64,000 nucleotides of DNA from a virus (Duplodnaviria > Caudoviricetes). Shown here piece after piece: positions 2,943 to 57,352 of the stretch (position 1 is its first letter; every line of letters starts with the position of its first letter). Under the pieces are notes generated by a model. That model was not told the DNA's origin and made no database searches. It saw only the letters and a list, made by a program, of their open reading frames with translations. The stretch is from the IMG/VR virus record IMGVR_UViG_2873063797_000002; one strand, 5' to 3'. A program made the position numbers and the translations under genes.

Positions 2943-3129
2943 CAAGGACGTGGGCCAGCGGGTCAAGGACAGCGCGGGAAGGGTCGGCATCCTGCGCGCT
3001 GTACTCACCGATTGGGAGGACCCGGCCAAGCTGCCGCCGGACCGCCGCAAACAGACCCTCGCTTTCCTCTGGCCAGAGGGGGGCGGACGGGAGTGGACGG
3101 CCCCGCCTCGCGCTGTGGAGCGCATCTAG
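2932..3129 (+). CDS. Small hypothetical protein (SH3-like) of the XRE cassette
   Basis: ATG overlaps the upstream stop; VGQRVKDSAGRVGIL...GGREW. Confidence 0.6.
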   Translation: MVTDKDVGQRVKDSAGRVGILRAVLTDWEDPAKLPPDRRKQTLAFLWPEGGGREWTAPPRAVERI

Positions 3130-3503
3130 TTTCCGCAGGTCAGAGGTACTTCGGGGGGTGTACAACACGCCTCGGCGCGCTGGTAGCAGTCGACGTTCGT
3201 GCCCATCGCGACGTGCTCGCCCTGCCAGCGGTGCGAGGCCAGCTGGCGGCGCAGCAGCTCGGGCGCGTTCACCTTCACGACGATCTGGGAGTCGAAGCCG
3301 AGTCCCGTGTCGAGGTCCAGGTAGCTGTGCGTCTTGCGGGCGAAGCAGTACACGCACGCGTGCGTGCAGCCCCGGTACGGGTTCACGGTCCATTCGAACG
3401 GCATCCGCGAGGCGCCCGGCACCCGGTTGAGGATCGAGCGGGCCCGCACCTCGTGGAAGGTGATGCCGCGGAACTCGGGTGTGTCGGTTCTGTCATCTAA
3501 CAC
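3126..3503 (-). pseudogene. Internal fragment of a host Rv2578c-family radical SAM gene
   Basis: DTPEFRGITFHEVRARSILNRVPGASRMPFEWTVNPYRGCTHACVYCFAR with the CxxxCxxC motif; family-like sequence stops at YQRAE and is replaced by 14 unrelated codons; native N-terminus absent. Confidence 0.9.
3130..3175. other. Putative att junction of the left element
   Basis: Host-like codons end at CAG CGC GCC GAG G (minus strand, 3170); the sequence beyond is non-homologous. Confidence 0.7.
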
Positions 3504-3528: not shown

Positions 3529-5061
3529 ATGACGCCAACTGACGTCCCAGCGACGTCCCGCCCGCGGAAGCGTGCGAGCCTCTACGCCAGGCTGTCCGTC
3601 GCTGCCGACGCTGAGAACCTGTCACTCGACGGCATGATCCGCGACATGCGCGCACTGTGTGACCGTGAGGGCTTCGAAGAGGTTGCCCTACACATCGACG
3701 ATGGTAGGTCGGGTGGACGCCGGGACAGGGACGAATTCCAAGCCTGGCTGAACGACGCACGCACAGGCGCCTGCGACGTCCTCGTCAACCCTGTGACCGA
3801 CCGGCTCACCCGTGAGGGCCTGAACGTCGCAGCGACGATTCTGGACGTCGTGGAGGGCAAGGACCCGGCAACCGGCAGGCTCGCACACCCGCCTGTACGG
3901 CTCATCGACTGCAACGGGCTCGACAGCTTGCACGGTGACGCGTTCCGCTTCCGCTTCGTCATTCAAGCGGAGGTGGGACGGGCGGAGCGGGAACGTATCC
4001 GGTCCCGCTCCCGAAAGCGGGCACGCAACCTCCGTCGCGCCGGCCGATGGGGAGGTGGGACGCCGCCCTTCGGGTACAGGGCGATAGCCAACCCTGACGG
4101 ACCTGGCTGGGTGCTCGACGTGGAGCCGAAAGAAGCGAAAGCCGTACAGGAGGCGGCAGAGGCGGTTCTGAAGAATCCCCCGGACCCGCTGACGCGTGTT
4201 GTACGGCGACTGAATCATCAGGGCGTGCCGCCTCGTCGAGCAAAGGCATGGTCCCGTGTGACGCTGAAGAGGGTGCTCACGGGGGACCACATCTTGGGAC
4301 GCGTCAGTCAGAACGGACGCCTTTTGCGCGACGAGGAGGGGGAAATCCTGGCGCCGTTTCCGGCGGTTCTCTCCCTTAGCCAGGTATCCGCATTGCGCGA
4401 CCGGCTGAAGCCGAAAGGCGGGACGTCGAACGGCGGAGGACATCCCGCGCGGGTGCTTTCCGGCCTTCTCTCTTGCCATTCCTGTCTGTCTGACCTCATC
4501 GTCCATCATGCATCAGTGCGCACGCGTGACGGAAAGCAGAAGGTAGAAGGGAAGCCGCCGAGAGTCTCCTACCGATGCGAGTCGCGAAGCCAGGGCAGGG
4601 TGTGCGAGCAACCCGTGACGGTAACTGCCGGCCCCATTGAGGAATTCGTCGTCAGGCTGTACCTGGACACCGTCGGCAGCTTCCCCATGTACAAGGAGCG
4701 GACGATCGTCTCCGGACTGGAAGAGTTGGCGTCGGTGGAGGAGGAGATCAAGGAAGCGTTGGCGGACCTGGCCACGGCTGCGGACGCAGAGACGTTCGCC
4801 AGGCTGCAGAAGCTCCAGGCACGTCAGGCAGAGCTGTCGACCCGGGACACCGGCCGTCGGTCGGAGATGGTGGCGACGGGCCAGACCATGGCGGAGTTCT
4901 GGGAGGGCGCGCTCATCGACGATCGCCGGGAGCTACTGGAGAGCGCGTTCGATGAACTGATCGTCGGCCCTGGGCGACGGGGGCCGAAGGGGTTCGACCC
5001 CGAGAGGCTCTCGTACCGATGGGCCGAGCGGGACGATGTGGCCTTCCAGGAGAGCATTTAG
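3529..5061 (+). CDS. int: Large serine integrase/recombinase
   Basis: ASLYARLS catalytic Ser motif, DRLTR, recombinase domain, CHSC...CES...C zinc ribbon and coiled coil. Confidence 0.95.
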   Translation: MTPTDVPATSRPRKRASLYARLSVAADAENLSLDGMIRDMRALCDREGFEEVALHIDDGRSGGRRDRDEFQAWLNDARTGACDVLVNPVTDRLTREGLNVAATILDVVEGKDPATGRLAHPPVRLIDCNGLDSLHGDAFRFRFVIQAEVGRAERERIRSRSRKRARNLRRAGRWGGGTPPFGYRAIANPDGPGWVLDVEPKEAKAVQEAAEAVLKNPPDPLTRVVRRLNHQGVPPRRAKAWSRVTLKRVLTGDHILGRVSQNGRLLRDEEGEILAPFPAVLSLSQVSALRDRLKPKGGTSNGGGHPARVLSGLLSCHSCLSDLIVHHASVRTRDGKQKVEGKPPRVSYRCESRSQGRVCEQPVTVTAGPIEEFVVRLYLDTVGSFPMYKERTIVSGLEELASVEEEIKEALADLATAADAETFARLQKLQARQAELSTRDTGRRSEMVATGQTMAEFWEGALIDDRRELLESAFDELIVGPGRRGPKGFDPERLSYRWAERDDVAFQESI

Positions 5062-5083
5062 GTAACGAGTAGATAACACTCAT

Positions 5084-5115
5084 GAGAGCCCCGGAGTCAC
5101 CCCTCCGGGGCTCTC
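5084..5115. terminator. Hairpin after the integrase
   Basis: GAGAGCCCCGGAG/CTCCGGGGCTCTC 13-bp perfect inverted repeat. Confidence 0.7.
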
Positions 5116-5243
5116 GGGCCCTCCCCGCGCCCTCGTCGCCCTCCTCGTCGACGTCGCACAGGCGCCGCGTCCTCCACAGGGGCCTGTGGGTAACTGCGGA
5201 GGGTGAGTGACGGGGTGTAAACTGCTACTCACTGTAGCCGTAG

Positions 5244-5359
5244 TGGTCAGACTGGGTGCCAAAGTGTCGAACTAACCCCTATTTTCAATTTCTTCTAACG
5301 CGCGTCGGTAGAAAATGAAAATAGGGGGTTAGTTTGCATGTTTGACCGCAGTCTGACCA
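5244..5359. repeat. Long AT-rich nested palindrome, copy 1
   Basis: TGGTCAGACTG/CAGTCTGACCA outer arms; AACTAACCCCTATTTTCA/TGAAAATAGGGGGTTAGTT inner arms; centre ACGCGCGT. Confidence 0.9.
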
Positions 5360-5758
5360 GGGGCCTACCAAGATCGTTCCCGCGTCACACTTACGACATA
5401 ACAATAGTAGGAGGGAAGGACGAGGCGACCGCGACGAGTAGCGCGCGGCCCGCTTCCCTCCCCGACGGCCGGCACCGCTCCCGTGCTCCCCGCACTCTCC
5501 TCCGGGTTGAAGCGCGGTTGCAGCGGTCCGGCCGTCCAAGGTTTCCCGTCCGTCAGGCAGCGTGCGCCGGATCTCATCGAGGGTCGGCATGCAGACGCGG
5601 ACGGGGAGGACGTCAAGCGCCGCGGGACCTCTCGCGGAGAGCCTCTGACGCCCGCGCTGTACCGCGAGGCGCCGGGAACGGGGCTACTTGCCGCGGACAG
5701 AGGCCGTAGGGGCGAGGCCCCGTGACGATCAACACCCGGGCCTCACGGTCCGGACGTT

Positions 5759-5831
5759 TCCCCGCTGGTGTAACCGGCAACACGCCCGCCTCTGGAGTGG
5801 GTAGCTACAGGTTCGAATCCTGTGCGGGGAG
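5759..5831 (+). tRNA. tRNA-Gln(CTG)
   Basis: TCCCCGC/GCGGGGA acceptor stem; CCCGC-CTCTGGA-GTGGG anticodon arm; GGTTCGAATCC T arm. Confidence 0.85.
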
Positions 5832-5881
5832 CTGGGGGCGTCCCGTGCGTGACTGATCAGCACGCGCCCGAACGTAGCTGT

Positions 5882-5952
5882 GCGTGGATAGCTCAGTGGC
5901 CGAGAGCACCCGACGCAATCGGGGGACGCGGGTTCAAATCCCGCTCCAATGA
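5882..5952 (+). tRNA. Degenerate tRNA-Cys(GCA)-like gene (possible pseudo-tRNA)
   Basis: Good D and T arms; anticodon loop ACGCAAT lacks U33; acceptor stem needs a bulge to pair. Confidence 0.55.
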
Positions 5953-5992
5953 CGTGCAGCGCTTTCCGACGGCGGGACCCGGACAGCACCCC

Positions 5993-6066
5993 GCCCGCGT
6001 AGGCAAACTGGCAAAGCCGCCCGGTTCAGGCCCGGGAGTCTGGGAGTTCGACTCTCCCCGTGGGTA
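5993..6066 (+). tRNA. tRNA-Leu(CAG) with a short variable loop
   Basis: GCCCGCG/CGTGGGT acceptor stem; CCCGG-TTCAGGC-CCGGG anticodon arm; GGGAG-TTCGACT-CTCCC T arm. Confidence 0.8.
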
Positions 6067-6077
6067 CAGGCAGTCTC

Positions 6078-6149
6078 CGGGACGTAGCCAAGAGGTAAGG
6101 CGCCCGCTTTGGGAGCGGGAGAGCGCGTGTTCGATCCACGCCGTCCCGA
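6078..6149 (+). tRNA. tRNA-Pro(TGG)
   Basis: CGGGACG/CGTCCCG acceptor stem; CCCGC-TTTGGGA-GCGGG anticodon arm. Confidence 0.88.
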
Positions 6150-6156
6150 CACAGCC

Positions 6157-19048: not shown

Positions 19049-22000
19049 ATGGCCGCAGGCCTGGACATTGTCGGAACCGTGGGCGTGGACGTCGTACCCG
19101 TCGCGCCGCTTTTCCACGAGAAGCTGAAGGCCATTGCCCTCCCCGCCGCTAGAAGCGCTGGTGAGGACGCGGGCCGCGCCTTCGGCGACGCCATGTCGCG
19201 CCACATCACCGTGGCAATCCCGTCCGCCATCAACAACGGCGGACGGGCAGCACGGACAGCGTCAACGCGACAGGGCGACGACAACGCTGGCGCCTTCGGG
19301 CGGGCCTTCAAGAACCGCCTTCAGGTGGCGTTCCGCTCCCTCCCGCGTCCTGACGTCCGCCTCTCGACAACGGGCTTCGACGCCGACCTTGCTCGCGTCC
19401 GCGCCCGCATGGAGACGCTGAGCGGGAAGCGCATCGGCATTGACGTTGACGTGGCGACGGCTGCGGCGGAGATCGAGACCATCGACGCCCAGCTTGCGGC
19501 GCTGGGCTCCCGCTCCCCGAACGTGCAGGTTCGCGCGGATATCGCCACGGCCCGCGCTGAGCTAGCCGCGATTCAGCGGCAGATCAACGACGTAGACCGC
19601 GACGACGTCAACATCAAGGTCAGGGCCAACACGGCGCAGGCTCAGGCCTCCCTCCTCGCCCTGTCGGCGTCGCTTGCGGGGATCGCCATCATTCCCGCCA
19701 TCCCGGTTTTGGCCGCAGGTATCGGGGCTATCGCATCCGCGGCACTCGCGGCCGGCGCTGGCGTCGGAGCCTTCGCCCTGGCGGCAATTCCCGCCGTCCA
19801 AGGGGTAACCAAGGTCATACAGGCGAAGACGGCTGCGGAGAAGGAAGCCGCAACCGCGACGGACAATGGCGCTGCTGCCAGCGTGAAAGCCGCACAGAAC
19901 GCCCTCCAGATGGCGACTGCTCAGCAGTCCCTTGCCGCCGCTCACCGCAACGCCGCCCGCTCCATCGCCCAGGCTAACCGCCAGGTGGAGGACGCAGAGC
20001 GCGCCCTTGGCCAGGCGGCAGCGCGTGCCATGGAACAGCGCGAGCAAGCAGCCAAGGCCGTCGAGCGCGCGGAGCGTGCGCTTGCCGACTCCAAGCGCGC
20101 CGTTCAGGCGGCAGAGCGCTCCCTGATCGACGCGCAGGAGGACGCGACACAGGCTCAGCAGGATCTCACCCGTGCCCGTCAGGATGCTGCGCAGAAGCTC
20201 GCGGACCTGAACGACGAGCTGGAGCGGGGCAAGCTTGACGAGCGAGACGCCACTCTCCGCGTCCGTGAGGCACAGGAGGAACTCAACCGAGTTCAGCGCG
20301 AGTTCGACGCCGGCAAGGCGACGGAACTTCAGCTCCAGCGGGCCCAGCTCGCCTACGACCAGTCCGTTCAGGCTGCGGCGCAGCAGAAGAAGGATTACGC
20401 GCAGCTCCAGAAGGATGCGGAGGCCGCGAAGAAGGCCGGCGTCGACGGGAGCGACGAGGTCAAGAGCGCCTCTGAGCGCCTGGCCGACGCGCAGCAGAAC
20501 GTGCGTGATCAGCTCCAGGCCGTCGTGGACGCTCAGCAGAACGTGCGTGATCAGGCGGAAGCCGTTGCTGACGCGCAGACCGACGCCGCCCGAGCGCAGG
20601 TGGAGGCGGCTCAGACCGTCGCGGACGCACAACGGGCCCTGTCCGACGCCGTGCAGAACGCCGCCGACACGCAGGTTCAGGCCGCGGACTCCATCACCTC
20701 CGCGGAGCGGGGCGTCGAAGCGGCTCGCCTGTCGTCCATCGACACCACGGCGAAGGCCGTCACGAAGGCGGACGAGTACCGTAAGGCACTCGCGAACTTG
20801 ACGCCGGAACAGCGGGCGCTTTACGACTCGCTCGCGGGCCCCCAGGGACTCATTCCGGCATTCAAGGAATGGTCGAAGTCCCTTCAGCCCGACGTCCTCC
20901 CGATCTTCACGCGGATGGTCAACGGCGCGAAGCGGGCACTCCCCGGCCTGACGCCGCTCGTCAAGAGCACTTCCGACGGTATTCAGGAGGTAATGGACCG
21001 CGCGAGTGCGGACCTGAAGGAGCCGTTCTGGCAGCGCTTCAAGACGGGTATTTCGACGGCGGCAAAGCCCGCTATCGAAGGTCTGGGAATTGGGTTCGGC
21101 AATGTCTTCAAGGGCATGGCCGGCGTCCTGGAAGCGTTCTTCCCGCACATGGACTCCATATCGGAGCGCATGCAGCGGATCACGAAGAGGTTCGCTGACT
21201 GGGGCACGGGCCTTCGCGGGTCCAAGGAATTCGAAGACTTCCTGAGCTACGCGAAGGAGATGGGCCCATTCGTCTCCGAGACGCTGAGGAAACTCGGCGC
21301 CGCACTGTTCGACCTGGCGAAGTCGCTGGAGCCCCTGTCCCGGATAATTCTCGAAACTCTCGGGAATGTAGCCGACGCAATCCGGTACGTCGCCGAGAAT
21401 GCGCCATGGGCAATTCAGCTCCTGTACGGCCTGTGGGTCGCGACGAAGCTGTGGAACCTGGCCATGGCGATGAATCCCATCGGCGCCGTCATCATGGGAA
21501 TCGCCCTTCTGGCCCTGGGGCTCAAGTACCTCTGGGACAACAACGAGGGATTCCGGGAGGTCGTAACCGCAGCCTGGAACGCCATCCGGGACAAGACGGT
21601 AGAAATCTGGGAGCGCTATCTCCGGCCGTTCTTCGAGTGGTTCGGCGCTATCGTCATGTGGCTCTGGGAGCACGTGATCAGGCCGTATATCGGCTTCCTG
21701 ATCGCCTACTGGAAGCAGGTGGGCGAAGTCTTCAAGTGGGTGTGGGACCACTGGCTCAAACCCTACATCGACTTCCTCATTGCCTACTGGACGAAGGTGG
21801 GGGAGGTATTCAAGTGGGTCTGGGATAACCTCCTGAAGCCCTACATTGACTTCCTCATTGCCTACTGGCTGCGCGTCGGCGACGTCCTCAAGTGGGTATG
21901 GGATCACTTCTGGCGCCCCATCATCGGCTTCATCGGTGAGCTGATTGTGTGGTGGTGGAACAACATCGTGAAGCGCTATTTCGGCTTCGTGATGGATATC

Positions 22001-32302: not shown

Positions 32303-32328
32303 CAACTGAGCTGCACTGAAAGCATCTG

Positions 32329-32362
32329 AGCCCCCTGGTTCTTCGGAGCCAGGGGGCTTTTT
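32329..32362 (+). terminator. Terminator ending the late region
   Basis: 13-bp stem, TTCG tetraloop and T tract. Confidence 0.85.
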
Positions 32363-32532: not shown

Positions 32533-33159
32533 ATGCCGACCTCACCCGGCCCGCTTCTATCCGCTGTCAGCACGCTATGGCAGCGACTAAGGAGCAACGT
32601 GCCAGATCTACCCGACATTGTCCCCGCCGTGTCGCCGACCACCCGGCGACTGGACCACGGCCAAGAGCGGTGGGCACGCGACGAGGAGGGACGAGTATCG
32701 GGCCTCGTTCTTACCGTCGATGTGCTGCAAGAGGGCCCTGAGTGCGCCCTAGACATGATCCTCCACGATGCGGCGCACATACTGTGCTGGACGCGGGGGA
32801 TCGCTGAGACGACCATGCACGGCGTCTACCACAACGCCCAGTTCCTGACGGCCGCGGAGGAGGTGGGACTGACATGGCCGGAGGACGCCACACGCGTGCG
32901 TGGGAAGGGCTATCACACGCCCGTCCTCACCCCTGAGACAAAGGAGCGGTACGCGGAGAACATGAGGGAGCTGGAGGAGGCTATCCCTCTCGTCCTTCCG
33001 CATCTGGAGTTGCCGCCGACGTCGAACCGAGGCCGCGTCGATCGCCTCACGCTCCGCTGCAAGTGCAAGCCGGCACGGAGCTTCCGTATCTCCCGGACCA
33101 TCGCAGCTCAGGGAGCTATTCACTGCGCCGTATGCGATAACGATTTCACGGAGGACTGA
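32533..33159 (+). CDS. SprT-like zinc metallopeptidase-fold protein with HDxxH variant and C-terminal Zn ribbon
   Basis: ILHDAAH...YHNAQFLTAAEEVGL; CKC...CAVC. Confidence 0.65.
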   Translation: MPTSPGPLLSAVSTLWQRLRSNVPDLPDIVPAVSPTTRRLDHGQERWARDEEGRVSGLVLTVDVLQEGPECALDMILHDAAHILCWTRGIAETTMHGVYHNAQFLTAAEEVGLTWPEDATRVRGKGYHTPVLTPETKERYAENMRELEEAIPLVLPHLELPPTSNRGRVDRLTLRCKCKPARSFRISRTIAAQGAIHCAVCDNDFTED

Positions 33160-33251
33160 TCAACTAGAGCTACCGTGGGGTAAGGTCTCCCTAAAGTCAG
33201 TGCTTCACGGTACTCTGCCTCTGGCGGAGGTGCGTCTAGGGAGAGGTCGAG

Positions 33252-34028
33252 ATGAGCCCGAAGGAAGTTGCCCGACTGCGTGACGATGCGGCTGTAAAGC
33301 GCGTCAGTGCTGCGAGCGTCCAGGCCCTCGACCTCGAAACCATCGAGAACGAAGCGACTCCGACGCTCATCGCTCGTGGTGCCGCCTACGCTCGCGAGTA
33401 CGCCGCCATCGAACACAAGCCAGAGCTACTCGCGAAGAACATTGCTGTGGTTCTCCTGGCGCTGCGGAAGCGTCATGACGACTGGCTTGGGCGGATGGGT
33501 GACTACCGACGTGATGCGGCAGAGGTCTACAGCGCTGCCAACATCAGGGATCGAGAGCAACTGAAGCGGCTTCAGGCGAACGTGCGCTACCACGTCGGCA
33601 ACATGGTGCGCCGCCACCTCACCCCGCGGGAGCTGAAGGCGCTAGAGCTGAAAGACGCCTCGCCACTGGAGCGTCAGCAGGACCGGCGAGCGACGGACAC
33701 AGCCATTCTCCGCGCGACGAAAGTGGCGGCTGACGTGGAGGCTTCGACTCCGAAGACGTCGAAGGCAGCGAAGAAGCCGAAGGGCCAGGCCGCGGAGGAG
33801 ATCGTCCCCACGCAGGGCGGAGGTCCCGGTACCGGTGTCAAGGCGACTGCCGACCACCTACGCCTGGCTGAGGTCGCGGCCGGCATCGTCAGTAAGCTCG
33901 ACGTCGACGTCATCGACGGGCACATGACCGACGGTCAGCGTGCCAGACTCGACGAGGAGCTTGCGGAGATGGAGCGCACCGTCCGCCGGCTGCGCCGACA
34001 CCTGAAAACTCGCAGGTCAGAGGACTGA
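33252..34028 (+). CDS. Putative repressor/DNA-binding protein (positional analogue of phiC31 c)
   Basis: Basic helical protein between the late and early regions, behind an operator-bearing promoter; no recognised HTH. Confidence 0.4.
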   Translation: MSPKEVARLRDDAAVKRVSAASVQALDLETIENEATPTLIARGAAYAREYAAIEHKPELLAKNIAVVLLALRKRHDDWLGRMGDYRRDAAEVYSAANIRDREQLKRLQANVRYHVGNMVRRHLTPRELKALELKDASPLERQQDRRATDTAILRATKVAADVEASTPKTSKAAKKPKGQAAEEIVPTQGGGPGTGVKATADHLRLAEVAAGIVSKLDVDVIDGHMTDGQRARLDEELAEMERTVRRLRRHLKTRRSED

Positions 34029-34065
34029 TCCGCCTCCCCGTCGACCAGCCTCCCCGTCCTCCGCG

Positions 34066-34179
34066 GGCCAAACTCCAGGCCAAAGTGTCGAACTAACCCC
34101 TACTTTCACTTTCTCTCTATGCGCGTTAGAGAAAAGTTGAAAGTAGGGGTTAGTTTGCATTTTTGGCCTCAGTCTGGCC
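34066..34179. repeat. Long AT-rich nested palindrome, copy 2
   Basis: Perfect 18-bp AACTAACCCCTACTTTCA/TGAAAGTAGGGGTTAGTT; AGGCCAAA/TTTGGCCT; centre TGCGCGT. Confidence 0.9.
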
Positions 34180-34282
34180 AGTGGAGGAGGACGCGGAAGA
34201 TCTTCGACGGCCCGCGTCACATGCGCTCCGGATTACGACATAACCCATGTGTAAGCCACTGACGGACTGCACAGGGAGCCAC

Positions 34283-35086
34283 ATGGCAGGCGTGAGCACC
34301 ATCAAGCGCGGCGACAGCCGCTTCTACATCGACCCCGACGACGGCGACATCAAGGTCCCGGGCGTGACCAGTGTCGGCAGCATGCTGCCGAAGGACTACC
34401 TCATGTACTGGTCCGCGAAGGAGGCTGCGGAGGCGGCCGTCACCAACTGGGACATCGTCTCCCAGCTCGTCCAGCGTGACCCTGCCGGCGCCGCCGACTA
34501 CCTGAAGAACGCGCACCGGCGGAAGTCGAAGGCCGCGAGTGACCTGGGCACCGCCGCGCACGACTACTTCGAGCGACTCGCGCGAGGCGAGACGGTCAAC
34601 GACCGCTCCGTCCACATGGACGTGAAGCCTCACGTCAGGTGGTTCCGCGAGTTCCTCCAGGAGGTTCAGCCGGAGTTCCTCTACATGGAGGAGACGGTGT
34701 GGAGCGACAGCCACCGCTACGCCGGCTCCTTCGACGCCATCGCGAAGGTGGACGGGGAGGTCGTCATCCTCGACTGGAAGACGTCGAAGTCGATCTACGA
34801 CTCCGTAGCCCTCCAGCTCTCCGCCTACCGCTACGCGGACCGCATCATCCTCGCGGAGTCGGGGGAGTCGGTCGATGTCCCGGAGATGGTCGGCGGAGCC
34901 GCCCTGCACGTCCGCCCGGAGGGCTGGGCGCTGCACCCGGTGAAGTGCGACCGCACGGTGTTCGACACGTTCCTCCACCTCCGCGGCGTCTTCGACTGGG
35001 AGAAGGAAGGGAAGAAGAAGGTCATCGGCAAGCCGATTGCCTCCGGTGGAGAGTTCGTTACCGGCACTCAGAGGAGAGCGGCGTGA
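34283..35086 (+). CDS. PD-(D/E)xK exonuclease (RecB/Cas4-like)
   Basis: VPGVTS, LGTAAH, YAGSFDAI...ILDWKTS, QLSAY. Confidence 0.85.
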   Translation: MAGVSTIKRGDSRFYIDPDDGDIKVPGVTSVGSMLPKDYLMYWSAKEAAEAAVTNWDIVSQLVQRDPAGAADYLKNAHRRKSKAASDLGTAAHDYFERLARGETVNDRSVHMDVKPHVRWFREFLQEVQPEFLYMEETVWSDSHRYAGSFDAIAKVDGEVVILDWKTSKSIYDSVALQLSAYRYADRIILAESGESVDVPEMVGGAALHVRPEGWALHPVKCDRTVFDTFLHLRGVFDWEKEGKKKVIGKPIASGGEFVTGTQRRAA

Positions 35087-40596: not shown

Positions 40597-40694
40597 GCAC
40601 CACACGCACCGCGAGCAACGCAAGGCGCCGCTCCCAATGATTCCGGCACTGGGAGCGGCGCCTCCCACGATTCTACGCACACTGAGGTGAAGCA

Positions 40695-41225
40695 GTGTCC
40701 GAACCTGAAACGAGTCAGCCGAAGATCCTCGAACTTTGCGCAGGATACGGGGGCATCGGGTTGGCTGTAGAGCCCCTCATCGACGGACAAGTCACCCACG
40801 TCGCTGAGGTAACCAAGCACGCCTGCAAGATCCTGGAAGACCGGTTCCCCGGAGCCGAGAACATCGGGGACGTCACGAAGTACGACTGGAGCGCCCTCGT
40901 CGGCCGAATCGACGTGATCACCGCAGGGTTCCCCTGCCAGGACATCAGCAACGCCGGCAGGAGAGAGGGCATTAATGGGAAGCGGTCGGGGATCTGGAAG
41001 CAAGTCGCCGAAGCTGTTGGGACACTTCGACCGAAGTACGTCTTCCTGGAGAACGTCGCAGTCCTCCGAACTCGGGGGCTCGACGTTGTCGCCCAGGACC
41101 TGGCCGAAGTCGGGTATGACCTCCGGTGGACGACTCTACGAGCTTCCGACATCGGTGCCGCCCACCATCGGAGCCGGTGGTTCGGGTTCGCGACTCCCGC
41201 TGTTTCCCACCCCGAAGGCATCTGA
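40695..41225 (+). CDS. DNA cytosine-5 methyltransferase, N-terminal part (motifs I-VIII)
   Basis: ELCAGYGG, AGFPCQDIS, LENV, HHRSRWF. Confidence 0.9.
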   Translation: MSEPETSQPKILELCAGYGGIGLAVEPLIDGQVTHVAEVTKHACKILEDRFPGAENIGDVTKYDWSALVGRIDVITAGFPCQDISNAGRREGINGKRSGIWKQVAEAVGTLRPKYVFLENVAVLRTRGLDVVAQDLAEVGYDLRWTTLRASDIGAAHHRSRWFGFATPAVSHPEGI

Positions 41226-45640: not shown

Positions 45641-46162
45641 ATGGGCGGGATCAGCTTTGCTCCGGTACCGGGAGCTAAACGCGGTTACTACGTCGACAGT
45701 GAGGGCGGGGTTTACGGTCCCCGCGGGCAGATGAAGCCCACTCCTCGGTGTGGGAAAGTCAGGAGGCGCCAGCGGGGGCACGGGTACCTAGCCTTCACGT
45801 ACCGAGCCCCTGATAACCGGCAGCGGACCAAGAACGTTCACCGGGCCGTCTTCGAGGCGTTCCACGGTCCTGTGCTTGCGGGCCTTCACGTTCGGCATCT
45901 AAACGGTGATGAGACGGACAACCGCCTCAGCAACCTTGCGGCGGGGACACCGACGGAGAACGTTGCGGATTCATACCGGAACGGCGCCCGGCACAACGGC
46001 GAACGGCACCCGCGTGCGCGGCTGACCGATGCACAGGTTCTCAGCATCCGCACGGAGTACGCGGAGGGCGAGACAAGTTACCAGCGACTCGCGGACAAGT
46101 ACGGCGTCACGAAGCAGCAGATCTACGCAATCGTCAAGCGGAAGCAGAGGAGGGACGTCTAG
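45641..46162 (+). CDS. Free-standing HNH homing endonuclease
   Basis: VHRAVFEAFHG, VRHLNGDETDNRLSNL; C-terminal HTH. Confidence 0.85.
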   Translation: MGGISFAPVPGAKRGYYVDSEGGVYGPRGQMKPTPRCGKVRRRQRGHGYLAFTYRAPDNRQRTKNVHRAVFEAFHGPVLAGLHVRHLNGDETDNRLSNLAAGTPTENVADSYRNGARHNGERHPRARLTDAQVLSIRTEYAEGETSYQRLADKYGVTKQQIYAIVKRKQRRDV

Positions 46163-48645
46163 TGCGGCTTTCGGAGATCCTGGGGCGACTTGCGGGGGTC
46201 GAAGAAGACCACGACGGGCACCTTGCCTTCTGCCCCGTGCACGCTGACCGCAACAACCAGAGCCTGAAGCTCACGCTGAAGGAGGACGGCAAGCTCCTCC
46301 TCGTCTGCCGCACCGGGTGCCCGAAGGGCGACGTCCTGGAGAGGCTCCGAATGCGGGAGTCCGACCTCTTCGACGTCATCAATGACCTGGGCGCGTCGAC
46401 CATCAGCGCGAAGGCACCGGAGAGCGTCGGCCCGGGGGAGATAGCCGGCCTCCGCATGTTCGTCGACGAGACGTCGGCCGCCCTGGAGCCGGAGTCGGAA
46501 GCGGCCTCCTACCTCTTCGACCGCTTCGGCATCACGCTGGAGACGGCGGAAGACCTGGGCGTCGGCTACGCGGCTCCCGGGCCTCGTCCTCAGCCGTGGC
46601 TCTCCCGCGGCTTCACCCGGTACCCGCGACTGACGGTCCCGCTCGCCGGCTTTGACGGAGTGGTCCGCGGCCTCCAGGGGCGCGACCTCTCTGGCAAGTG
46701 CCCCGCCCGGTGGGTCTCCCTGACCAACGTGGACGGCAAGCAGTGGGCGAAGTACGGCGTGATGAGGAGTGGCGCCGGCTACGACACGGTCCTAATTTGT
46801 GAGGGTCCTGGCGACGCTCTGACGGCCGTCGGCGCGGGCTATGACGCCGTGGCCATCCGCGGCGCTGGGCTCGCCCGTAACGCCGCTCTGGTGGCCGAAC
46901 TGGCGGACGGCCTCCGGGACCTGGACGTCGTCATTGCCGGCGACCGGGACCGTGCCGGCGCAGGCTTCACCGACTCCCTGGCCGTGGCCCTCGTCAAGGC
47001 GGGCGTCATGGTGCGTCGCCTGGAGATCCCGAACGACGGCGACGACCTCACCGACTGGAGGGAGCGGGACGCGGAGGCCTTCCCCGGGCAGCTCCATGCC
47101 GCCGTGCGTGCGGCCACCGTCGTGGAGCTGGAGGAGACGAAGGCGGAGCCTGTGAAGGAGGACGCCGACGAGGAGGCAGACGTCTCCGCCACGGACGCCG
47201 CCCTTCAGACGATGTCCCAGTCCGCGCGGGAGGCTTTCGACCTGACGGACGTGGGCATCGCGGTACGCCTCCGCGACTACATGGCCCGCTCTGGCGGGGG
47301 AGTGCGCTACGCGAGCGGACTTGGCTTCCTCGTGTGGGACGGCAAGGTCTGGGCGCCGGGGAACGACGAGGTGCGGACGGCGCTCCTTCAGATGGGCGCG
47401 GAACTCATCGCGTCGGGCGACGACGGGGCGCGGAAGATCGCGCTACGAGCGCTGACCAACCGGGCCATCGAGGACATCATCAAGGTTCTGCCGTCGGTGC
47501 CCGGAGTCCCGGCGTCGGCCGCGGACTTCGATTCGGACCCGGAGCTTCTGTCCGTCGCCAACGGGACCGTCAACCTCCGCACGAAGGAGCTGCGCCCGCA
47601 CGATCCCGCGGACATGATCACCCGTCGCCTTGACGTCGCGTACCGACCGGGCGCGAAGGCGGAGAGGTGGCTCCAGTTCCTCGACGAGATCTTCCCCCAT
47701 CACCCGGAGCTGCCGGCGTACATGCGACGGCTCATCGGCTACGGAATCACCGGGTCGACGGCGGAGGAGTGCTTCGTCTTCCTCCACGGGGACGGCAAGA
47801 ACGGGAAGTCGAAGTTCCTGGGCGCGCTCATCGACACCTTCAAGGGCGTCACGAAGTCGACGGAGTTCAGCACCTTCGAGAGCCGCGTCGGCGTCGGCCA
47901 GGCGTCACCGGAGGTGGCAGCGCTCCGCGGGGCGAGGCTCGTGACGGCGAGCGAGACGGAGAAGTACTCCCGTCTTGCGGAAGGGCTGATCAAGCAGTTG
48001 ACCGGCGGTGATCCGGTGACGTGTCGGATGCTCTACGGCGCGCCGTTCACCTACGTGCCTAGCTTCCTCCTCCTCGTCGCCGGCAACTACAAGCCCGCCA
48101 TCCTGAGCCAGGACTACGGAATTTGGCGTCGGGTGAAGCTCGTGCCCTTCGAAGCGTCCTTCCGCGGGGCGAAGGCAGACCTCAACCTTGCCGCCCGCCT
48201 CCGCGCGGAGCGGGAGGGCATCCTCGCGTGGGCCATCGACGGAGCCGCGGAGTGGTACGCGAGCGGCCTTCAGGAGCCCGACTCCATCGCCACGGCTACG
48301 CAGGACTACCGGGAGTCGGAGGATCGCCTTGCCGAGTTCCTCGTCGCCCGGTGCGTCGAAGAGCCGGGCACGCGGGTCGCTCCCATGGCCATCCGTCGCG
48401 CCTACCAGGAATGGGCGGAGGACGCCGGCCTGAGCCGGAAGGAGGTGCTCTCCGGCTGGGCGCTGGGCGTGGAGTTGGAGTCGCGCGACTTCGCGAAGGT
48501 CAAGCGCTCCGGGCGCTGGGGCTTCGAGGGGCTGCGACTGAAGAGCGACGAAGAAATCCAGGAGGCGAACGCAGCGGAGAACACGCCGGCCGACGAGCCG
48601 GGCGAGGACACGGACATCTTCAATCAGTCGAAGGAGGCAGCGTGA
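46162..48645 (+). CDS. DNA primase-helicase (Zn finger, TOPRIM and D5-like SF3 helicase)
   Basis: CPVH...C...C; ICEGPGD; GDRDRAG; HGDGKNGKS; KQLTGGD; WRRV. Confidence 0.92.
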   Translation: MRLSEILGRLAGVEEDHDGHLAFCPVHADRNNQSLKLTLKEDGKLLLVCRTGCPKGDVLERLRMRESDLFDVINDLGASTISAKAPESVGPGEIAGLRMFVDETSAALEPESEAASYLFDRFGITLETAEDLGVGYAAPGPRPQPWLSRGFTRYPRLTVPLAGFDGVVRGLQGRDLSGKCPARWVSLTNVDGKQWAKYGVMRSGAGYDTVLICEGPGDALTAVGAGYDAVAIRGAGLARNAALVAELADGLRDLDVVIAGDRDRAGAGFTDSLAVALVKAGVMVRRLEIPNDGDDLTDWRERDAEAFPGQLHAAVRAATVVELEETKAEPVKEDADEEADVSATDAALQTMSQSAREAFDLTDVGIAVRLRDYMARSGGGVRYASGLGFLVWDGKVWAPGNDEVRTALLQMGAELIASGDDGARKIALRALTNRAIEDIIKVLPSVPGVPASAADFDSDPELLSVANGTVNLRTKELRPHDPADMITRRLDVAYRPGAKAERWLQFLDEIFPHHPELPAYMRRLIGYGITGSTAEECFVFLHGDGKNGKSKFLGALIDTFKGVTKSTEFSTFESRVGVGQASPEVAALRGARLVTASETEKYSRLAEGLIKQLTGGDPVTCRMLYGAPFTYVPSFLLLVAGNYKPAILSQDYGIWRRVKLVPFEASFRGAKADLNLAARLRAEREGILAWAIDGAAEWYASGLQEPDSIATATQDYRESEDRLAEFLVARCVEEPGTRVAPMAIRRAYQEWAEDAGLSRKEVLSGWALGVELESRDFAKVKRSGRWGFEGLRLKSDEEIQEANAAENTPADEPGEDTDIFNQSKEAA

Positions 48646-49145
48646 GCGACGAGTGGCGGGAGATACCGGGGTTCCCCGGCTACTTCGCAAGCAGCTCCGG
48701 GCGCATCCGGGGGCGGCGAGGTTGGGAGTTGTCTCCTGCGGTAGGGCGGGGCGGGTACGAGAAGGTGACCCTGTACGCAGGTGGGCGGAAGCAGAACGTG
48801 GAAGTACACCGGGCGGTGGCACTCGCCTTTCTTGGTCCGGACGAGGAGGGCCGCCCAGTTGTTGCACACGGCGACGGCAACCCGCGGAACAACACCCCAG
48901 GCAACCTCCGATGGGCAACGTACGCGGACAACGCCGCCGACCGTGACCGACATGGAAGAACTGCGCGCGTGTGTGGAGAGGACCACCGTTCCGCGAAGGT
49001 GACGGCGCACGAGGTACGAGGAATTCGCGCTGAATACGAGGAGGGCGTACTCACCCAAGCAATGCTGGGAGAGGCATACGGGCTCTCGCATCAGACCGTC
49101 TGGTCGATCATCCATCGTCAAAACTGGAGGCACCTCGATGCGTGA
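48642..49145 (+). CDS. NUMOD4/HNH homing endonuclease
   Basis: EWREIPGFPGYFASSSGRI; VHRAVALAF; HGDGNPRNN..NLRW. Confidence 0.85.
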   Translation: MSDEWREIPGFPGYFASSSGRIRGRRGWELSPAVGRGGYEKVTLYAGGRKQNVEVHRAVALAFLGPDEEGRPVVAHGDGNPRNNTPGNLRWATYADNAADRDRHGRTARVCGEDHRSAKVTAHEVRGIRAEYEEGVLTQAMLGEAYGLSHQTVWSIIHRQNWRHLDA

Positions 49146-51108
49146 GGTCCGTGGATTGCTCGCAGGACGTCCCTGGACCGGTCACGTCCTGGAGCGCGTC
49201 GAAGATCTCCCTGCCTTCGTAAAGTGGGGCCTCCGCCAACGTGTCCCCGTTGCCGTGGATAGCGAGACGAAGGGGCTCGCTATCCTCAGCGGCGACCCGG
49301 AGTACATCCGTCTCGTGCAGATGGGCAACGAGGAAGAAGCGTTCGTCATCCCCGTCGAGCTGGGGGAGCCGTTCCGCGTTGCTGTCCGTGACGTCCTCCG
49401 CGCCCTGCCTCGCATCGTGGGGCACAACTACCACGCCTACGATGCGCCAGCGCTTCACGCGTATCTAGGCATGGACTACGACGAGCTGTGCCGTAAGGCC
49501 ACGGATACCATGCTTCTGTCGAAGCTCGTCGACCCCCGCGCGGTCCACGAGGGTGGCATAGGAAGCTCGCTGAAGCCGCTCTCAGACCACTACATCGACC
49601 CGACGGCCGCCGATACACAAGGCGACCTCACGGCCGTGTTCCGCACGCTGAAGCTGACGAAGGAGACAGGGTGGGCGGGAATCCCGCTCTTCCACCCGAC
49701 CTACGTCGAGTACGCCGCACTCGACGTCATCTTGACTGCACGGCTGCTCTCCAAACTGGAGGCGGAACTCCGTCGCTTCGGCGTTCCTCAGCGTCTCGTC
49801 GACTACGAACACGAGGTCGCCCGCATCTGCGGGCACATGCAGATCCGCGGCTTCCTTCTGGACCCTGACTACACCCGCCACCTGGCCGACGAGCTGAGGG
49901 AAGAGGAGGAGACCAACACCCGCATCGTCCGTTCCTACGGCGTGGAGAAGCTGGGCTCTCCGACTCAGATCGTCGAAGCGCTGCTTGGCATGGGGGAGTC
50001 CCTCATCATGCCCGGCAAGTCGGCGCCGGAGCGGACGGCCGGCGGAGCCATCAAGGCTGACAAGTCGGTCCTCTGTGCACTCGCGGACACCGACCTCTAC
50101 GGCAAGCGTCTGCACATCCGCACCCCCAACCCGCTCGCCGTTGCCGTCATCAAGGCGAAGCGGGCGGCGAAGTGGCGCACGGCCTACGCGGACAACTTCC
50201 TCTCGACGGTCGACCGCAACGGCCGCATCCATCCGGGCATCCGGACGATGCAGGCGCGCACGGGGCGCATGTCCGTGACGAACCCCGCGGTTCAGACCCT
50301 CCCGTCGGGCGACTGGAAGATCCGCCGGGCGTTCCTCGCGGAGCCGGGGGAGCGGATCATCAGCGTCGACTTCCAGGCCGTCGAACTGCGCGTTCTTGCG
50401 GCCCTGGCGGGCGTGACGAAGATGAAGGAGGCCATCAACGCCGGCCGTGACCTCCACTCCTTCACGGCGGAACTCGTCTTCGGGCCCGGCTTCACGAAGA
50501 AGCACCGCAAGATCAGTAAGGCGATCGGCTTCGGCGTGGTCTATGGAGGCGGCGCCAATACGATTCAGCGCCAGACCGGCGCCCCGATGGAGGAGGTCAA
50601 GCGGGCCGTCGCCGCCTACCACCGGGCGTACCCGGAGGTGCGCCGGGCGGCGAACCGATGGCAGCGTGAGGCCTTCGCGAACGGCATGGTGACGACGTCT
50701 GTGACGGGGCGTCGCCTCCCGCTGGACCGGGACCGCACCTACGCCGTGACGAACTACCAGGTTCAGAGTGCGGCGCGGGACTGCTTGGGCCAGGCCCTCA
50801 TCAACATGGACGAGGCGGGCCTCCTGCCGTACCTGCGTCTCCCCGTTCACGACGAGGTCATCGCGTCGGCACCGGAGCGGGAGGCGGAGGACGTCGCCCG
50901 TGCCATCGGTGAGTGCATGACGTTCAACCTCTTTGGCGTGCCCATCGATTCGGACCCCGACGTCAGCGGACAGAGCTGGGGGAGCCTGTACATGAAGGAC
51001 CCGGACGACAAGTACCTCCCGGAGCTACTCATCGAGCACGACCCGTACTTCGCGAGCCGGCCGGAGGAGGCGCACCGCATGCGGGAGCCGGAAGCGGCGG
51101 CAGCGTGA
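49138..51108 (+). CDS. DNA polymerase family A with 3'-5' exonuclease domain
   Basis: VDSET; RTGRMS; DFQAVELRVLA; KAIGFGVVYG; VHDE. Confidence 0.95.
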   Translation: MREVRGLLAGRPWTGHVLERVEDLPAFVKWGLRQRVPVAVDSETKGLAILSGDPEYIRLVQMGNEEEAFVIPVELGEPFRVAVRDVLRALPRIVGHNYHAYDAPALHAYLGMDYDELCRKATDTMLLSKLVDPRAVHEGGIGSSLKPLSDHYIDPTAADTQGDLTAVFRTLKLTKETGWAGIPLFHPTYVEYAALDVILTARLLSKLEAELRRFGVPQRLVDYEHEVARICGHMQIRGFLLDPDYTRHLADELREEEETNTRIVRSYGVEKLGSPTQIVEALLGMGESLIMPGKSAPERTAGGAIKADKSVLCALADTDLYGKRLHIRTPNPLAVAVIKAKRAAKWRTAYADNFLSTVDRNGRIHPGIRTMQARTGRMSVTNPAVQTLPSGDWKIRRAFLAEPGERIISVDFQAVELRVLAALAGVTKMKEAINAGRDLHSFTAELVFGPGFTKKHRKISKAIGFGVVYGGGANTIQRQTGAPMEEVKRAVAAYHRAYPEVRRAANRWQREAFANGMVTTSVTGRRLPLDRDRTYAVTNYQVQSAARDCLGQALINMDEAGLLPYLRLPVHDEVIASAPEREAEDVARAIGECMTFNLFGVPIDSDPDVSGQSWGSLYMKDPDDKYLPELLIEHDPYFASRPEEAHRMREPEAAAA

Positions 51109-52495: not shown

Positions 52496-53266
52496 ATGAG
52501 CCGCGACCAGATCAACGCCGACCAGATCCGCGCCGCACAGGGTGGCAACAGTGACGCCATGTGGCAGATCGTCATGGGTCTGGACGCGACTCTCCGCGGC
52601 ATCGTCCGCAGCGTCGCCCCGACGGCAAACGAGAAGGACGCGGAGGACTACCTCCAGGAGGCGCGGGTGGTCCTGATCCAGCGCATCAAGGACTTCGACT
52701 CCGACGCGTCGTCGGCATCGCTGATGACTTACGTCTATCAGGCAGCCCGTCGCGCGGTGACGGAGGCGCACATCTCCAACTCGTGCCCCGTCTCCGTTCC
52801 CGCATCGGCCGCGATCGTCGTCCGTCACCTCCTGTGGCGCCACGGTGGCGACGCGGAGAAGGTGTGGGCGGAGCTGGAGGAGCAGCGGAGCGCCACGCAC
52901 AAGATCTCCCGGGAGATGTTCGTCTCGGTCATCGAAGCACTCGCGGAGGTGACGAGCCTCGACGCCCCCACCGGCGGAGAAGACGGCGACGGCTCCGGCC
53001 TCACGCTCTCCGACGTCCTCCCCGACCCCTTGTCGGAAGCCACCGACTCCATCGAGCGCCGCGACCTGGCCCGGTGGCTCATGACGCAGATCCCACAGCG
53101 CCAGGCATACGCGCTTCGCGCCTTCTACGGCGTCGGCATGACGAAGCAGGAGGACGCGGAAACGTGCGACGACCTGACCGTCAAGCCGGCCGCCCTCCGC
53201 AAGCTCCGTTCCCGCGGACTGTGCAGCGCGCTTGCCGTCGCAGACGCGCACGACGTGACCGCGTGA
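52496..53266 (+). CDS. Phage-encoded sigma-70-like RNA polymerase sigma factor
   Basis: DAEDYLQEA (region 2.2), SLMTYVY, SLDAP, LSDVLPD and a region 4-like C-terminus. Confidence 0.8.
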   Translation: MSRDQINADQIRAAQGGNSDAMWQIVMGLDATLRGIVRSVAPTANEKDAEDYLQEARVVLIQRIKDFDSDASSASLMTYVYQAARRAVTEAHISNSCPVSVPASAAIVVRHLLWRHGGDAEKVWAELEEQRSATHKISREMFVSVIEALAEVTSLDAPTGGEDGDGSGLTLSDVLPDPLSEATDSIERRDLARWLMTQIPQRQAYALRAFYGVGMTKQEDAETCDDLTVKPAALRKLRSRGLCSALAVADAHDVTA

Positions 53267-55046: not shown

Positions 55047-55080
55047 CGCGTAAGTCGTTTCACGCGACTTTCCCCGCAGG

Positions 55081-55112
55081 GGTTGTGTGGTCGACATAAC
55101 CCGTGCCATAGT
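55081..55112 (+). promoter_or_regulatory. Class B promoter (TTGTGT-N18-CATAGT), also at 57283, 59220 and 60108
   Basis: GGTTGTGTGGTCGACATAACC is identical in four places, each preceded by an inverted operator. Confidence 0.8.
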
Positions 55113-55175
55113 CATCACATCGCAAGGCACACACGGAAGGGGCGCTCCGCACGGGGCGCCCCAGGGGAGGACGTC

Positions 55176-55544: not shown

Positions 55545-55619
55545 GCCCCGCATAGGCAAGCCCGACTACCCGGTACCCCCAGTGCCGGCGGGCGCGCGGT
55601 TCGAATCCGCGGCGGGGCA
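55545..55619 (+). ncRNA. tRNA-like RNA (75 nt; perfect acceptor and T arms, non-canonical D arm)
   Basis: GCCCCGC/GCGGGGC-A; CGCGG-TTCGAAT-CCGCG; CCGGTA-CCCCCAG-TGCCGG. Confidence 0.65.
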
Positions 55620-55654
55620 CTTCACAGACCTACCGACTCACTAAAGGAGCAACC

Positions 55655-56920: not shown

Positions 56921-57352
56921 TCAACAGCCACGCCAACCACGCTCGTAGAGGAGCCATCATGCCCACCTTCGCCGACTCCCTTGATCAGTTCTTCAACGAC
57001 CTCCGTGACGCCGGGGAATGCGAGTTCTGGGAGTGCCCGCGCACGGGTGCCCAGCCTCACGACCGTAACTGCCTGACGGGCAGTTCGACGGACGACGACG
57101 AGTAGGAGTCCACGTGATGATGCTCGGACGGTTCTGCCCCGACGGTCCTGGCGGCCGTGACTGCTACTGCTGCGGACAGCCGCCGGGGAGGGGGAGGACC
57201 CTTGCCCGTCGGGCGCAGCGCCGCAGGGAGCGGCACGCTTGGCGCAAGAGCGTGAGTCGTTTTACGCGAGTTGGCGAGTAGGGGTTGTGTGGTCGACATA
57301 ACCCGTGCGATAGTCGCTACAGCGAAAGGCACTCACTCACGAAGGAGTCGAA

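Follow-up and report, generated by a model that had tools for sequence, protein, structure and literature searches.

The Samy prophage of Streptomyces ambofaciens ATCC 23877 carries two long palindromes, one behind the integrase gene (int) and one behind the operon at the immunity position, each upstream of a phage-type promoter that heads a lytic operon. We propose that they are hairpin terminators without a U-tract, which would insulate the lysogenic transcription units from the lytic promoters, and we put the probability of this tentative reading at about 45%. A transcription stop was not among the options of the preliminary description of this DNA; we rank it first because of RNA-seq gene counts and the place of the palindromes after units that are expressed in lysogens.

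The 64-kb stretch of DNA that was analysed (the window) is the Samy prophage and corresponds to positions 6,586,304-6,650,303 in an 8.39-Mb two-contig genome. Samy was described as a prophage that is integrated, encodes a serine integrase and has cos ends (PMC11302927), and both the attL repeat TCGGGTGTGTCG and the cos sequence CGTTAAGGTGC given there occur once in the window, at the expected places (3475 and 7662, respectively). Nearly all Samy genes lie on the plus strand, and their order is syntenic with that of phiC31: attL, the serine integrase gene (3529-5061), copy 1 of the palindrome, four tRNAs, a DUF4352 gene on the minus strand and cos; after cos, a Prim-Pol-like protein, the terminase, structural genes, a dNMP kinase and a canonical terminator (~32320-32362); and after this terminator, an SprT-like protein, SAMYPH_32, copy 2, a PD-(D/E)XK exonuclease and the early genes, which include a Toprim-D5_N-SF3 primase-helicase (46162-48645), PolA (49138-51108) and a sigma-70 region-2 protein (52496-53266). 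The features that bear on the palindromes are the following:

3529-5061, plus strand: serine integrase SAMYPH_94 (Resolvase, Recombinase and Zn_ribbon_recom domains; phrog_95), expressed in lysogens, ending 183 nt before copy 1
5244-5359, no strand assigned: palindrome copy 1 (type A), an AT-rich imperfect inverted repeat of ~115 bp after int, with 50 pairs and z -7.6
5370-5402, plus strand: type-A promoter boxes AAGATC (5370-5375) and GTCACA (5384-5389), a 7-nt spacer and CATAAC (5397-5402)
5403-6150, plus strand: conserved leader (5403-5758, including the annotated SAMYPH_95) and four-tRNA cluster, the head of the late side
32533-33159, plus strand: SprT-like protein of the lysogenic operon, highly expressed
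33252-34028, plus strand: SAMYPH_32, 'putative immunity repressor' of the lysogenic operon, ending 38 nt before copy 2
34040-34199, no strand assigned: extended type-B stem, in which the C/T-rich left flank CCGTCCTCCGCGG pairs with the G/A-rich right flank GGAGGAGGACGCGG to give a longer hairpin
34066-34179, no strand assigned: palindrome copy 2 (type B), after the immunity-position operon, with 49 pairs and z -9.7
34196-34244, plus strand: type-B promoter boxes GAAGATCTTC (34196-34205) and GTCACA (34216-34221), a 17-nt spacer and CATAAC (34239-34244)
34283-35086, plus strand: PD-(D/E)XK / Cas4-type exonuclease SAMYPH_34, the first early gene, silent in lysogens

The preliminary description had reported two AT-rich palindromes in direct orientation, and a repeat search agrees with it: the direct repeat spans 5245-5363 and 34066-34184, with a spacing of 28,821 bp, and the arms of copy 1 are 5244-5301 and 5302-5359. 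The GC content of the palindromes is 46-47%, versus ~66% for the prophage, and the two copies are ~76-85% identical, depending on the aligned span. An 18-nt arm, AACTAACCCCTAYTTTCA, occurs three times in the window against zero expected. It had been stated that both copies keep this arm with a compensatory T-A to C-G swap and that the outer arms differ yet still pair. The swap is real, but the right arm of copy 1 has one extra C and hence matches AACTAACCCCTAYTTTCA inexactly; likewise, the change from GGTC/GACC to GGCC/GGCC is real, but the outer arm of copy 2 contains one uncompensated A-C mismatch (GGCCAAACT versus AGTCTGGCC). The unpaired GTGTCG and TGCAT segments and the GCGCGT centre were found in both copies, as described. 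There is no third copy: the 8.39-Mb genome contains two, both in the prophage, and this copy number together with the fixed context rules out a mobile palindromic element of the MITE or REP type. Nor does the element resemble phage repressor operators, taken as 17-20-bp sequences present at many sites, as it is 115 bp long and has two copies.

Each copy folds as one long hairpin of 49-50 pairs. The minimum free energy of the RNA is -59.6 to -60.6 kcal/mol for copy 1 and -67.8 to -72.5 kcal/mol for copy 2, and none of 200 shuffled sequences folded as well as the native copies. The z-scores of the two copies on both strands range from -7.6 to -10.2, the fold of the minus strand being about equal to that of the plus strand; a covariance model (R1) gave 106 bits (plus) and 91 bits (minus) for copy 1, and 118 and 98 bits, respectively, for copy 2. 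With 45 nt of flank on each side, copy 2 reaches -90.3 kcal/mol, and the CCTCC/GGAGG flanks are present in most type-B relatives. A consensus scan for canonical intrinsic terminators (a GC-rich hairpin followed by a 7-9-nt U-tract) found none in 5000-5800 or 33900-34400, where the right flanks of the palindromes read GGGGCCTACC and GTGGAGGAGG. The gaps between int and copy 1 and between SAMYPH_32 and copy 2 contain no other substantial hairpin and no U-tract terminator.

The gene map bears out that copy 1 follows int and copy 2 follows the 32533-34028 operon. The copies also stand, as had been claimed, at the heads of the late and early regions: a phage-type promoter (GTCACA...CATAAC) lies 35-60 bp downstream of each, heading the tRNA/late or the exonuclease/early operon, and the boxes (G)AAGATC(TTC), CGTCACA and CATAAC are found downstream of both. 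Behind copy 2, the unit GTCACA-N17-CATAAC leads into a ribosome-binding site and the start codon of the exonuclease gene; the spacer behind copy 1, at 7 nt, is one helical turn shorter, and the conserved leader and tRNAs come next. No sigma-70-type promoter was detected within the palindromes or in the flanking regions.

Transcription around the two copies was judged from raw RNA-seq gene counts of non-inducing cultures (PMC11302927, S2 table). SAMYPH_30, before the late terminator, had 4, 2 and 0 counts; SAMYPH_31, the SprT-like gene, had 3716, 3215 and 2593, and SAMYPH_32 had 3353, 2435 and 1678. The exonuclease gene, 255 bp downstream, had 26, 15, 13, 8, 7, 7 and 4 counts, and a minus-strand ORF over copy 2 had 10, 3 and 10 (PMC11302927). 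RNA in lysogens thus drops ~100-fold across copy 2, between genes of similar length; counts at the level of genes do not separate termination from processing and decay, or from the action of Rho. In each of the 10 non-inducing conditions, int and SAMYPH_31/32 alike were called expressed (PMC11302927). Copy 1 lies between int and the DUF4352 gene, which converge and are both expressed: int had 2494, 1872 and 1435 counts over 1533 nt and the DUF4352 gene, on the minus strand, 469, 329 and 527, while SAMYPH_95 (243 nt), behind copy 1, had 316, 216 and 370 (PMC11302927). The RNA density of SAMYPH_95, ~1300 counts/kb, is close to that of int (~1600/kb), so that there is either read-through at copy 1 or activity of the type-A promoter in lysogens.

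We suggest the following course of events. In the lysogen, two blocks are transcribed, the SprT-like/SAMYPH_32 immunity operon and int, the latter together with att-proximal regulators located before it when the genome is circular, and each runs head-on into a lytic operon. The palindrome, once transcribed, would fold as a hairpin of ~50 bp (~65 bp for copy 2) without a U-tract and would end the lysogenic transcript, by termination or processing, tens of bases before the repressed lytic promoter. Under this proposal the hairpin itself would cause the drop in RNA over copy 2, and copy 1 would act alike; as the element is symmetric, it may stop leftward transcripts too. The position after lysogen-expressed blocks, the RNA drop over copy 2, the very stable folds, the lack of another terminator in the gaps, a slight excess of G-U pairs on the transcribed strand, and the selected pairing and the hairpins kept at both positions in relatives (below) argue for such a stop, as do the U-tract-less terminators reported for phiC31 (Ingham et al. 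1995, as cited in PMC3993855). Against it, mycobacterial hairpins without a U-tract failed to terminate in vitro (PMC3993855).

The drop over copy 2 fits equally well with cleavage followed by decay, and the hairpin may have a role in RNA other than termination, as an RNase III processing or stability site in the 3' UTRs of the int and immunity transcripts or as the target of a lytic antiterminator. Near-perfect dsRNA of ~50 bp is predicted in both 3' UTRs, and phiC31 early mRNAs were reportedly found by Hindle and Smith in 1994 to be processed at stem-loops by an RNase III-like activity. We nevertheless regard such a role as very improbable. The bias in G-U pairs that a function in RNA would leave is weak (3.15 per element on the plus, transcribed strand versus 2.33 on the minus strand). 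The palindrome also matched no Rfam family at the gathering score, the sub-threshold matches being generic long-hairpin miRNA precursor models (24-36 bits versus cut-offs of 63-104).

Relatives of the palindromes were sought with a family pattern (AACTAACCCC, a gap of 25-50 nt, GGGGTTAGTT), which matched ~35 Streptomyces genome contigs and 23 IMG/VR stretches (viral contigs of 52-60 kb), often twice per contig. In total there are 54 distinct relatives; loci were oriented by synteny in tblastn (orientation by GC3 only proved inadequate), and the relatives always occupy the two syntenic positions in Samy-like prophages. Type B is always found between the SAMYPH_32 homologue and the exonuclease gene, and type A after an integrase and before tRNA, DUF4352(-), PrimPol and TerL genes; on contigs with two copies these are 27.8-30.3 kb apart. 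The family pattern demanded perfect 10-mers in both arms, so that an unchanged core in the first set is by construction. Searches based on the covariance model and on synteny revealed one-sided and two-sided changes of the core; loci reached via the exonuclease protein had one-sided changes (AACTGACCCC, AACCAACCCC). The covariance model matched 8 of 150 Streptomyces species genomes (~5% of the species sampled). All strong matches that were checked for context lie in the two syntenic prophage contexts; the weak ones are those of G005 and G147. Two genomes (G002 and G129) have prophages with two sites each, at distances of 27.8 and 30.3 kb, and two others (G072 and G134) have a single type-A-like copy behind a serine integrase, with the core altered in both arms. 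These last two loci (GCACTGGACCC/GGGTCCAGTGC in L100 and AAATCAACCCC/GGGGCTGATTT in L099) still fold, with z of -7.6 and -4.8, respectively. The relatives found are prophages and IMG/VR contigs; blastn with 221 nt against 50,697 phage records gave no match to the palindrome DNA.

We analysed whether the two arms depend on each other by folding every left arm with every right arm and comparing the energies; this was used in place of column-wise covariation because register shifts (4 or 5 C's, bulges) hamper the latter in MAFFT alignments, where RNAalifold calls the invariant core only (14 pairs, 3 with double changes). Native hairpins had a mean of -59.7 kcal/mol, versus -54.8±0.9 kcal/mol for arm-swapped chimeras. 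Permutations of partners almost never reached the native value (0 of 20,000; 1 of 20,000 with 36 representatives <80% identical), hence the arms co-vary, and the pairing is under selection. The view in the preliminary description of a conserved cis-element selected for symmetry is thus upheld: homologues that preserve the symmetry are numerous, and the co-variation is significant. At the same time, chimeric hairpins keep 92% of the native energy, and most of the symmetry stems from one consensus common to both arms. The plus and minus strands differ in fold energy by a mean of only -1.4 kcal/mol. The shared-arm consensus and the near-equal folds of the strands also fit a site in DNA. Over longer evolutionary distance the sequence is replaced and the hairpin persists.

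Such replacement is seen in Attoomi, whose exonuclease is 59% identical to that of Samy and which has a palindrome of its own, of ~93 bp, upstream of the exonuclease gene (21093-21187) and after int (40637-40728), the two copies being 82% identical. The G147 prophage has the same arrangement, with differently sequenced hairpins at both places; z for the Attoomi and G147 hairpins is -5.3 to -8.5. In phiC31 and phiBT1, exactly two copies of a dyad module of 120-140 bp are found at these positions, with GC-rich hairpins before and an early-type phage promoter at once after. With z of -0.8 to -2.3, these modules show no significant tendency to form a hairpin; that of phiC31 is a pair of 11-13-bp inverted repeats ~60 bp apart. 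Three sequence classes (Samy-type, Attoomi/G147-type and phiC31/BT1-type) therefore occupy the same two positions. A canonical GC-rich terminator stands immediately upstream of the module in phiC31, in the G147 prophage and before each copy in Attoomi, so that there the module either adds a second stop at most or has another role. These upstream terminators and the non-folding modules of phiC31 and phiBT1 hold down our confidence in a transcription stop, and so do the sequence common to both arms and both copies, the stepped type-B spacing described below and the ambiguous data on copy 1.

Several of these observations are what would be expected of a platform in DNA, i.e. a dyad bound as duplex or cruciform by a lineage-specific protein that controls the heads of both lytic operons. 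Candidates for the protein would be RNA polymerase carrying the phage sigma factor or a regulator that does not belong to the multi-copy operator system, and any stop would be a roadblock or side effect. Both arms have the same consensus, and divergent lineages alter both together, as a switch in the specificity of a dimer would. The three sequence classes at the same two positions and the inverted-repeat pair without a hairpin in phiC31 are in line with this, and the gene beside copy 2 is class-specific: SAMYPH_32, which gave nothing significant in Pfam, was rejected as a homologue of phiC31 repressor c or Attoomi gp25 because no similarity was detectable, whereas the SprT-like gene next to it is common to the classes, with 35% identity. 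In 7 of 15 genomes, the resident A and B copies are mutual nearest neighbours, in three at 94-99% identity. Distances from the type-B centre to the -10 box cluster at 105.5, 114.5-117.5, 125.5-127 and 137.5, about one helical turn apart. Finally, in a comparison by eye, the arms resemble the phage promoter (GTCAGA-N19-ACTAAC versus GTCACA-N17-CATAAC).

Other observations make a platform of this kind rather unlikely. The type-A spacing to the promoter is unphased and continuous over 92.5-108. The type-B promoter belongs to a repeat family (D6; 31375, 34211, 39717 and 52431), whose three other members, at 31375, 39717 and 52431, are promoter-like units without a palindrome. One genome (G071) has a single type-A-like copy with the canonical core despite having no SAMYPH_32 homologue. 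To judge from sequence, the repressor operator of Samy is likely another element, the multi-copy box CGCGTAAAACGACTCACGCG, which has ACTCACG in common with the phiC31 CIR and is absent beside the palindromes. The resemblance between the A and B copies suggests either gene conversion or joint evolution with one shared partner, and gene conversion alone could account for it; under our preferred reading of a transcription stop, gene conversion would keep the copies alike. A wider form of DNA-level control, which we consider quite unlikely, would unite the hairpin palindromes and the phiC31/phiBT1 dyad modules across the lineage. A class-specific protein, with the variable C-terminal domain of the SF3 primase-helicase (as at P4 ori/crr) or the immunity-position protein as candidates, would bind both copies, possibly as cruciforms, and couple the early and late heads, or the initiation of replication, at two sites half a genome apart.

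The primase-helicase also raises the question of a replication origin, in which the AT-rich dyad would be the assembly site for this enzyme and the second copy a P4 crr-like element or a second origin. SF3 helicases (SV40 T antigen, papillomavirus E1 and P4 alpha) load on inverted repeats beside AT-rich DNA, and HSV oriS and oriL are multi-copy palindromes with AT centres. In Samy, an AT-rich palindrome stands in a genome of 66% GC, each arm has one to three CTAAC/GTTAG pentamers, and copy 2 heads the replication and recombination module. The encoded primase-helicase is P4-alpha/D5-like (Toprim, D5_N and DUF5906 domains); over residues 3-757 it is 44% identical to that of Attoomi, and the last ~70 residues are unalignable, which hints at an origin, although C-termini often diverge and this is no proof. 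The cumulative GC skew has its maximum near copy 1 and its minimum near copy 2, but codon positions 1 and 2 produce this turn. GC3 skew stays negative in late and early genes alike, with no switch at either copy; the turn thus reflects amino-acid composition, not replication, and an origin inferred from GC skew was rejected. In addition, 12 kb separate copy 2 from the primase-helicase gene, and both positions are defined by upstream lysogenic genes and downstream promoters, neither of which an origin needs. We therefore find an origin improbable.

The palindromes lie at module borders, and relatedness between phages is in places discordant over copy 2. One relative (L057) is 0.85-0.92 identical to Samy downstream and 0.55-0.69 upstream of copy 2, and in another (L024) the identity is 0.91 just upstream and falls to 0.77-0.81 downstream. 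Together with the concerted evolution of the A and B copies, this would be consistent with a junction for module exchange, whose shared sequence lets related phages swap lysogeny, late and early modules by homologous recombination. We hold this to be the least probable of the readings considered: few discordant pairs were seen, fast-evolving immunity genes mimic a breakpoint, and recombination between the direct copies would delete 28.8 kb. Exchange would, moreover, explain the persistence of the sequence, not the palindrome.

Temperate actinophages of the phiC31 type need to keep lysogenic transcripts out of their lytic operons, because nearly all genes are on one strand. If our reading of the palindromes as transcription stops is true, this separation is achieved by two very long hairpins at fixed places, one behind the immunity genes and one behind int, and the toolbox for Streptomyces genetics may gain a compact terminator that lacks a U-tract and possibly works in both directions. 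If the elements act at the level of DNA instead, they would be a pointer to the origin or master switch of a widely used phage group. In either case the pair marks module borders in a large uncharacterised prophage family and aids its annotation. The Samy paper (PMC11302927) mentions no palindromes, hairpins or terminators, and our full-text literature searches yielded nothing relevant, in keeping with the earlier view that the element is undescribed.

Among known systems, the N15 telRL site, a palindrome with a ACGCGCGT-like centre as in Samy, had been put forward as a lead. The likeness is limited to the 8-bp CG-rich centre, and an N15-type telomere was rejected. No protelomerase (PF16684) was found in the whole genome, and Samy has two internal copies, a serine integrase and cos, and is integrated between attL and attR and packaged from cos, and not a linear plasmid with closed ends (PMC11302927). 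The P4 ori/crr, SV40 and HSV origins are AT-rich dyads, sometimes in at least two copies, on which an SF3 or origin-binding helicase loads, whereas the flanks of the Samy palindromes are transcriptional and have no skew switch. Models for module exchange are Botstein-type linker sequences and the PeSL (promoter-early stem-loop) cassettes of T4-type phages (Arbiol et al. 2010), in which a repeated intergenic hairpin is combined with a phage promoter at module borders and shuffling is suspected. PeSLs are short, have many copies and place the hairpin downstream of the promoter, whereas Samy, a temperate phage, has two copies with the hairpin upstream. The CIR operators of phiC31 (CCTACTCACGTGAGTAGG, the sites of repressor c) are likewise conserved intergenic inverted repeats in the same phage supergroup, but are 17-18 bp long and occur at at least 15 sites, the Samy palindrome being six times longer and present twice; their counterpart in Samy is more likely the multi-copy box with ACTCACG.

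The retroregulation hairpin of lambda, sib with tI, is also long and lies directly 3' of int, and its form in RNA determines what becomes of the int transcript. It is parted from int by integration and works via RNase III on anti-terminated transcripts, whereas the Samy hairpin stays beside int in the prophage and has a second copy after the immunity operon. A further system is the U-tract-less terminators reported for phiC31 (Ingham et al. 1995, as cited in PMC3993855). They belong to the same phage supergroup and host genus, a hairpin without a U-tract ends a transcription unit, and symmetry permits action in both directions. The Samy elements differ from them in being far longer (~115 bp, with an AT-rich top), in forming two near-identical copies at fixed syntenic positions and in a sequence conserved over dozens of prophages, and termination by them is predicted. 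Regarded as hairpin boundaries, they stand out by their length, their occurrence as a pair, their fixed position and their conservation across the phage supergroup.

The Samy window carries, between its genes, many copies of a box of about 20 bp, CGCGTAAAACGACTCACGCG, often 55-95 nt 5' of phage promoters.

16033, 18264, 32460, 39633, 45544, 52336, 53457 and 54499, + strand: direct copies of the box
35922, 55048, 57250, 59187 and 60079, inverse orientation: inverse copies of the box

The box shares ACTCACG with CCTACTCACGTGAGTAGG, the CIR operator bound by the phiC31 repressor c, which occurs in at least 15 copies in phiC31 (L093). Box CGCGTAAAACGACTCACGCG is probably the operator of the Samy repressor. 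Four of the inverse copies also open the members of a second promoter-like family.

55048-55134, 57250-57336, 59187-59273 and 60079-60151: inverse box CGCGTAAAACGACTCACGCG, followed by GGTTGTGTGGTCGACATAACC

These sites have the -10-like element CGACATAAC in common with the GTCACA...CATAAC promoters (31375, 34211, 39717 and 52431).

At the immunity position, the SprT-like HDxxH protein of Samy (32533-33159) is 35% identical (E 1e-22) to that of phage Attoomi (L122 19269-19811). The neighbours of the two genes, the putative immunity repressor SAMYPH_32 in Samy and gp25 in Attoomi, have no detectable relatedness to each other. The immunity pair thus consists of one conserved peptidase-like gene and one class-specific partner.

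Behind palindrome copy 1, a conserved, structure-prone leader lies between the type-A promoter, a GTCACA...CATAAC promoter, and the tRNAs.

5403-5758: leader (GGAGGGGAGGACG ... CTCCCCTCC), overlapping the annotated ORF SAMYPH_95

Lysogens contain much RNA from this leader (316, 216 and 370 raw counts over 243 nt in published RNA-seq), and the leader may be a non-coding RNA or attenuator instead of a gene. A fourth tRNA (5885-5948), tRNA-Cys in the published annotation, was found by Rfam and missed by ARAGORN; conversely, the tRNA-Gly(ccc) at 55545-55620 is an ARAGORN call at which the Rfam tRNA model stays below its gathering score.

ORFs were also called over both palindromes.

34017-34220, - strand: SAMYPH_33, annotated over palindrome copy 2; about 1-10 reads
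5285-5590, - strand: mechanical ORF overlapping palindrome copy 1, similar to SAMYPH_33

SAMYPH_33 is probably a spurious call, a product of the AT-rich palindrome. Another repeat is present in three copies in the att-proximal accessory region.

57990-58021, 59655-59686 and 60518-60549: perfect 32-nt GC-rich hairpin GGAGCCCCTGTCAATTCCGGTGACAGGGGCTC

They probably serve as terminators or are some other kind of repeated site. Lying 5' of attL, a weak TerL-nuclease match and a radical-SAM gene fragment (2-1519 and 3126-3503 (-)) are consistent with the remnant integrative element described in the literature and with a host gene disrupted at the att site.

Two-copy elements are also found in related phages: a dyad module of 120-140 bp, in which inverted repeats of the GTGATGAAGTGAC type are separated by about 60 bp, occurs exactly twice in phiC31 and exactly twice in phiBT1.

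L093 21649-21768 and 40428-40547: phiC31 dyad module
L123 20474-20594 and 40703-40827: phiBT1 dyad module

In both phages one site directly precedes the promoter of gene 1, and the second directly precedes the tRNA/late promoter. Samy itself encodes a sigma-70 region-2 protein, its gene located behind a GTCACA...CATAAC promoter.

52496-53266: sigma-70 region-2 protein (Pfam E 7.5e-06)

The genes in the syntenic place, phiC31 gp12, phiBT1 gp12 and Attoomi gp35, are annotated as sigma factors.
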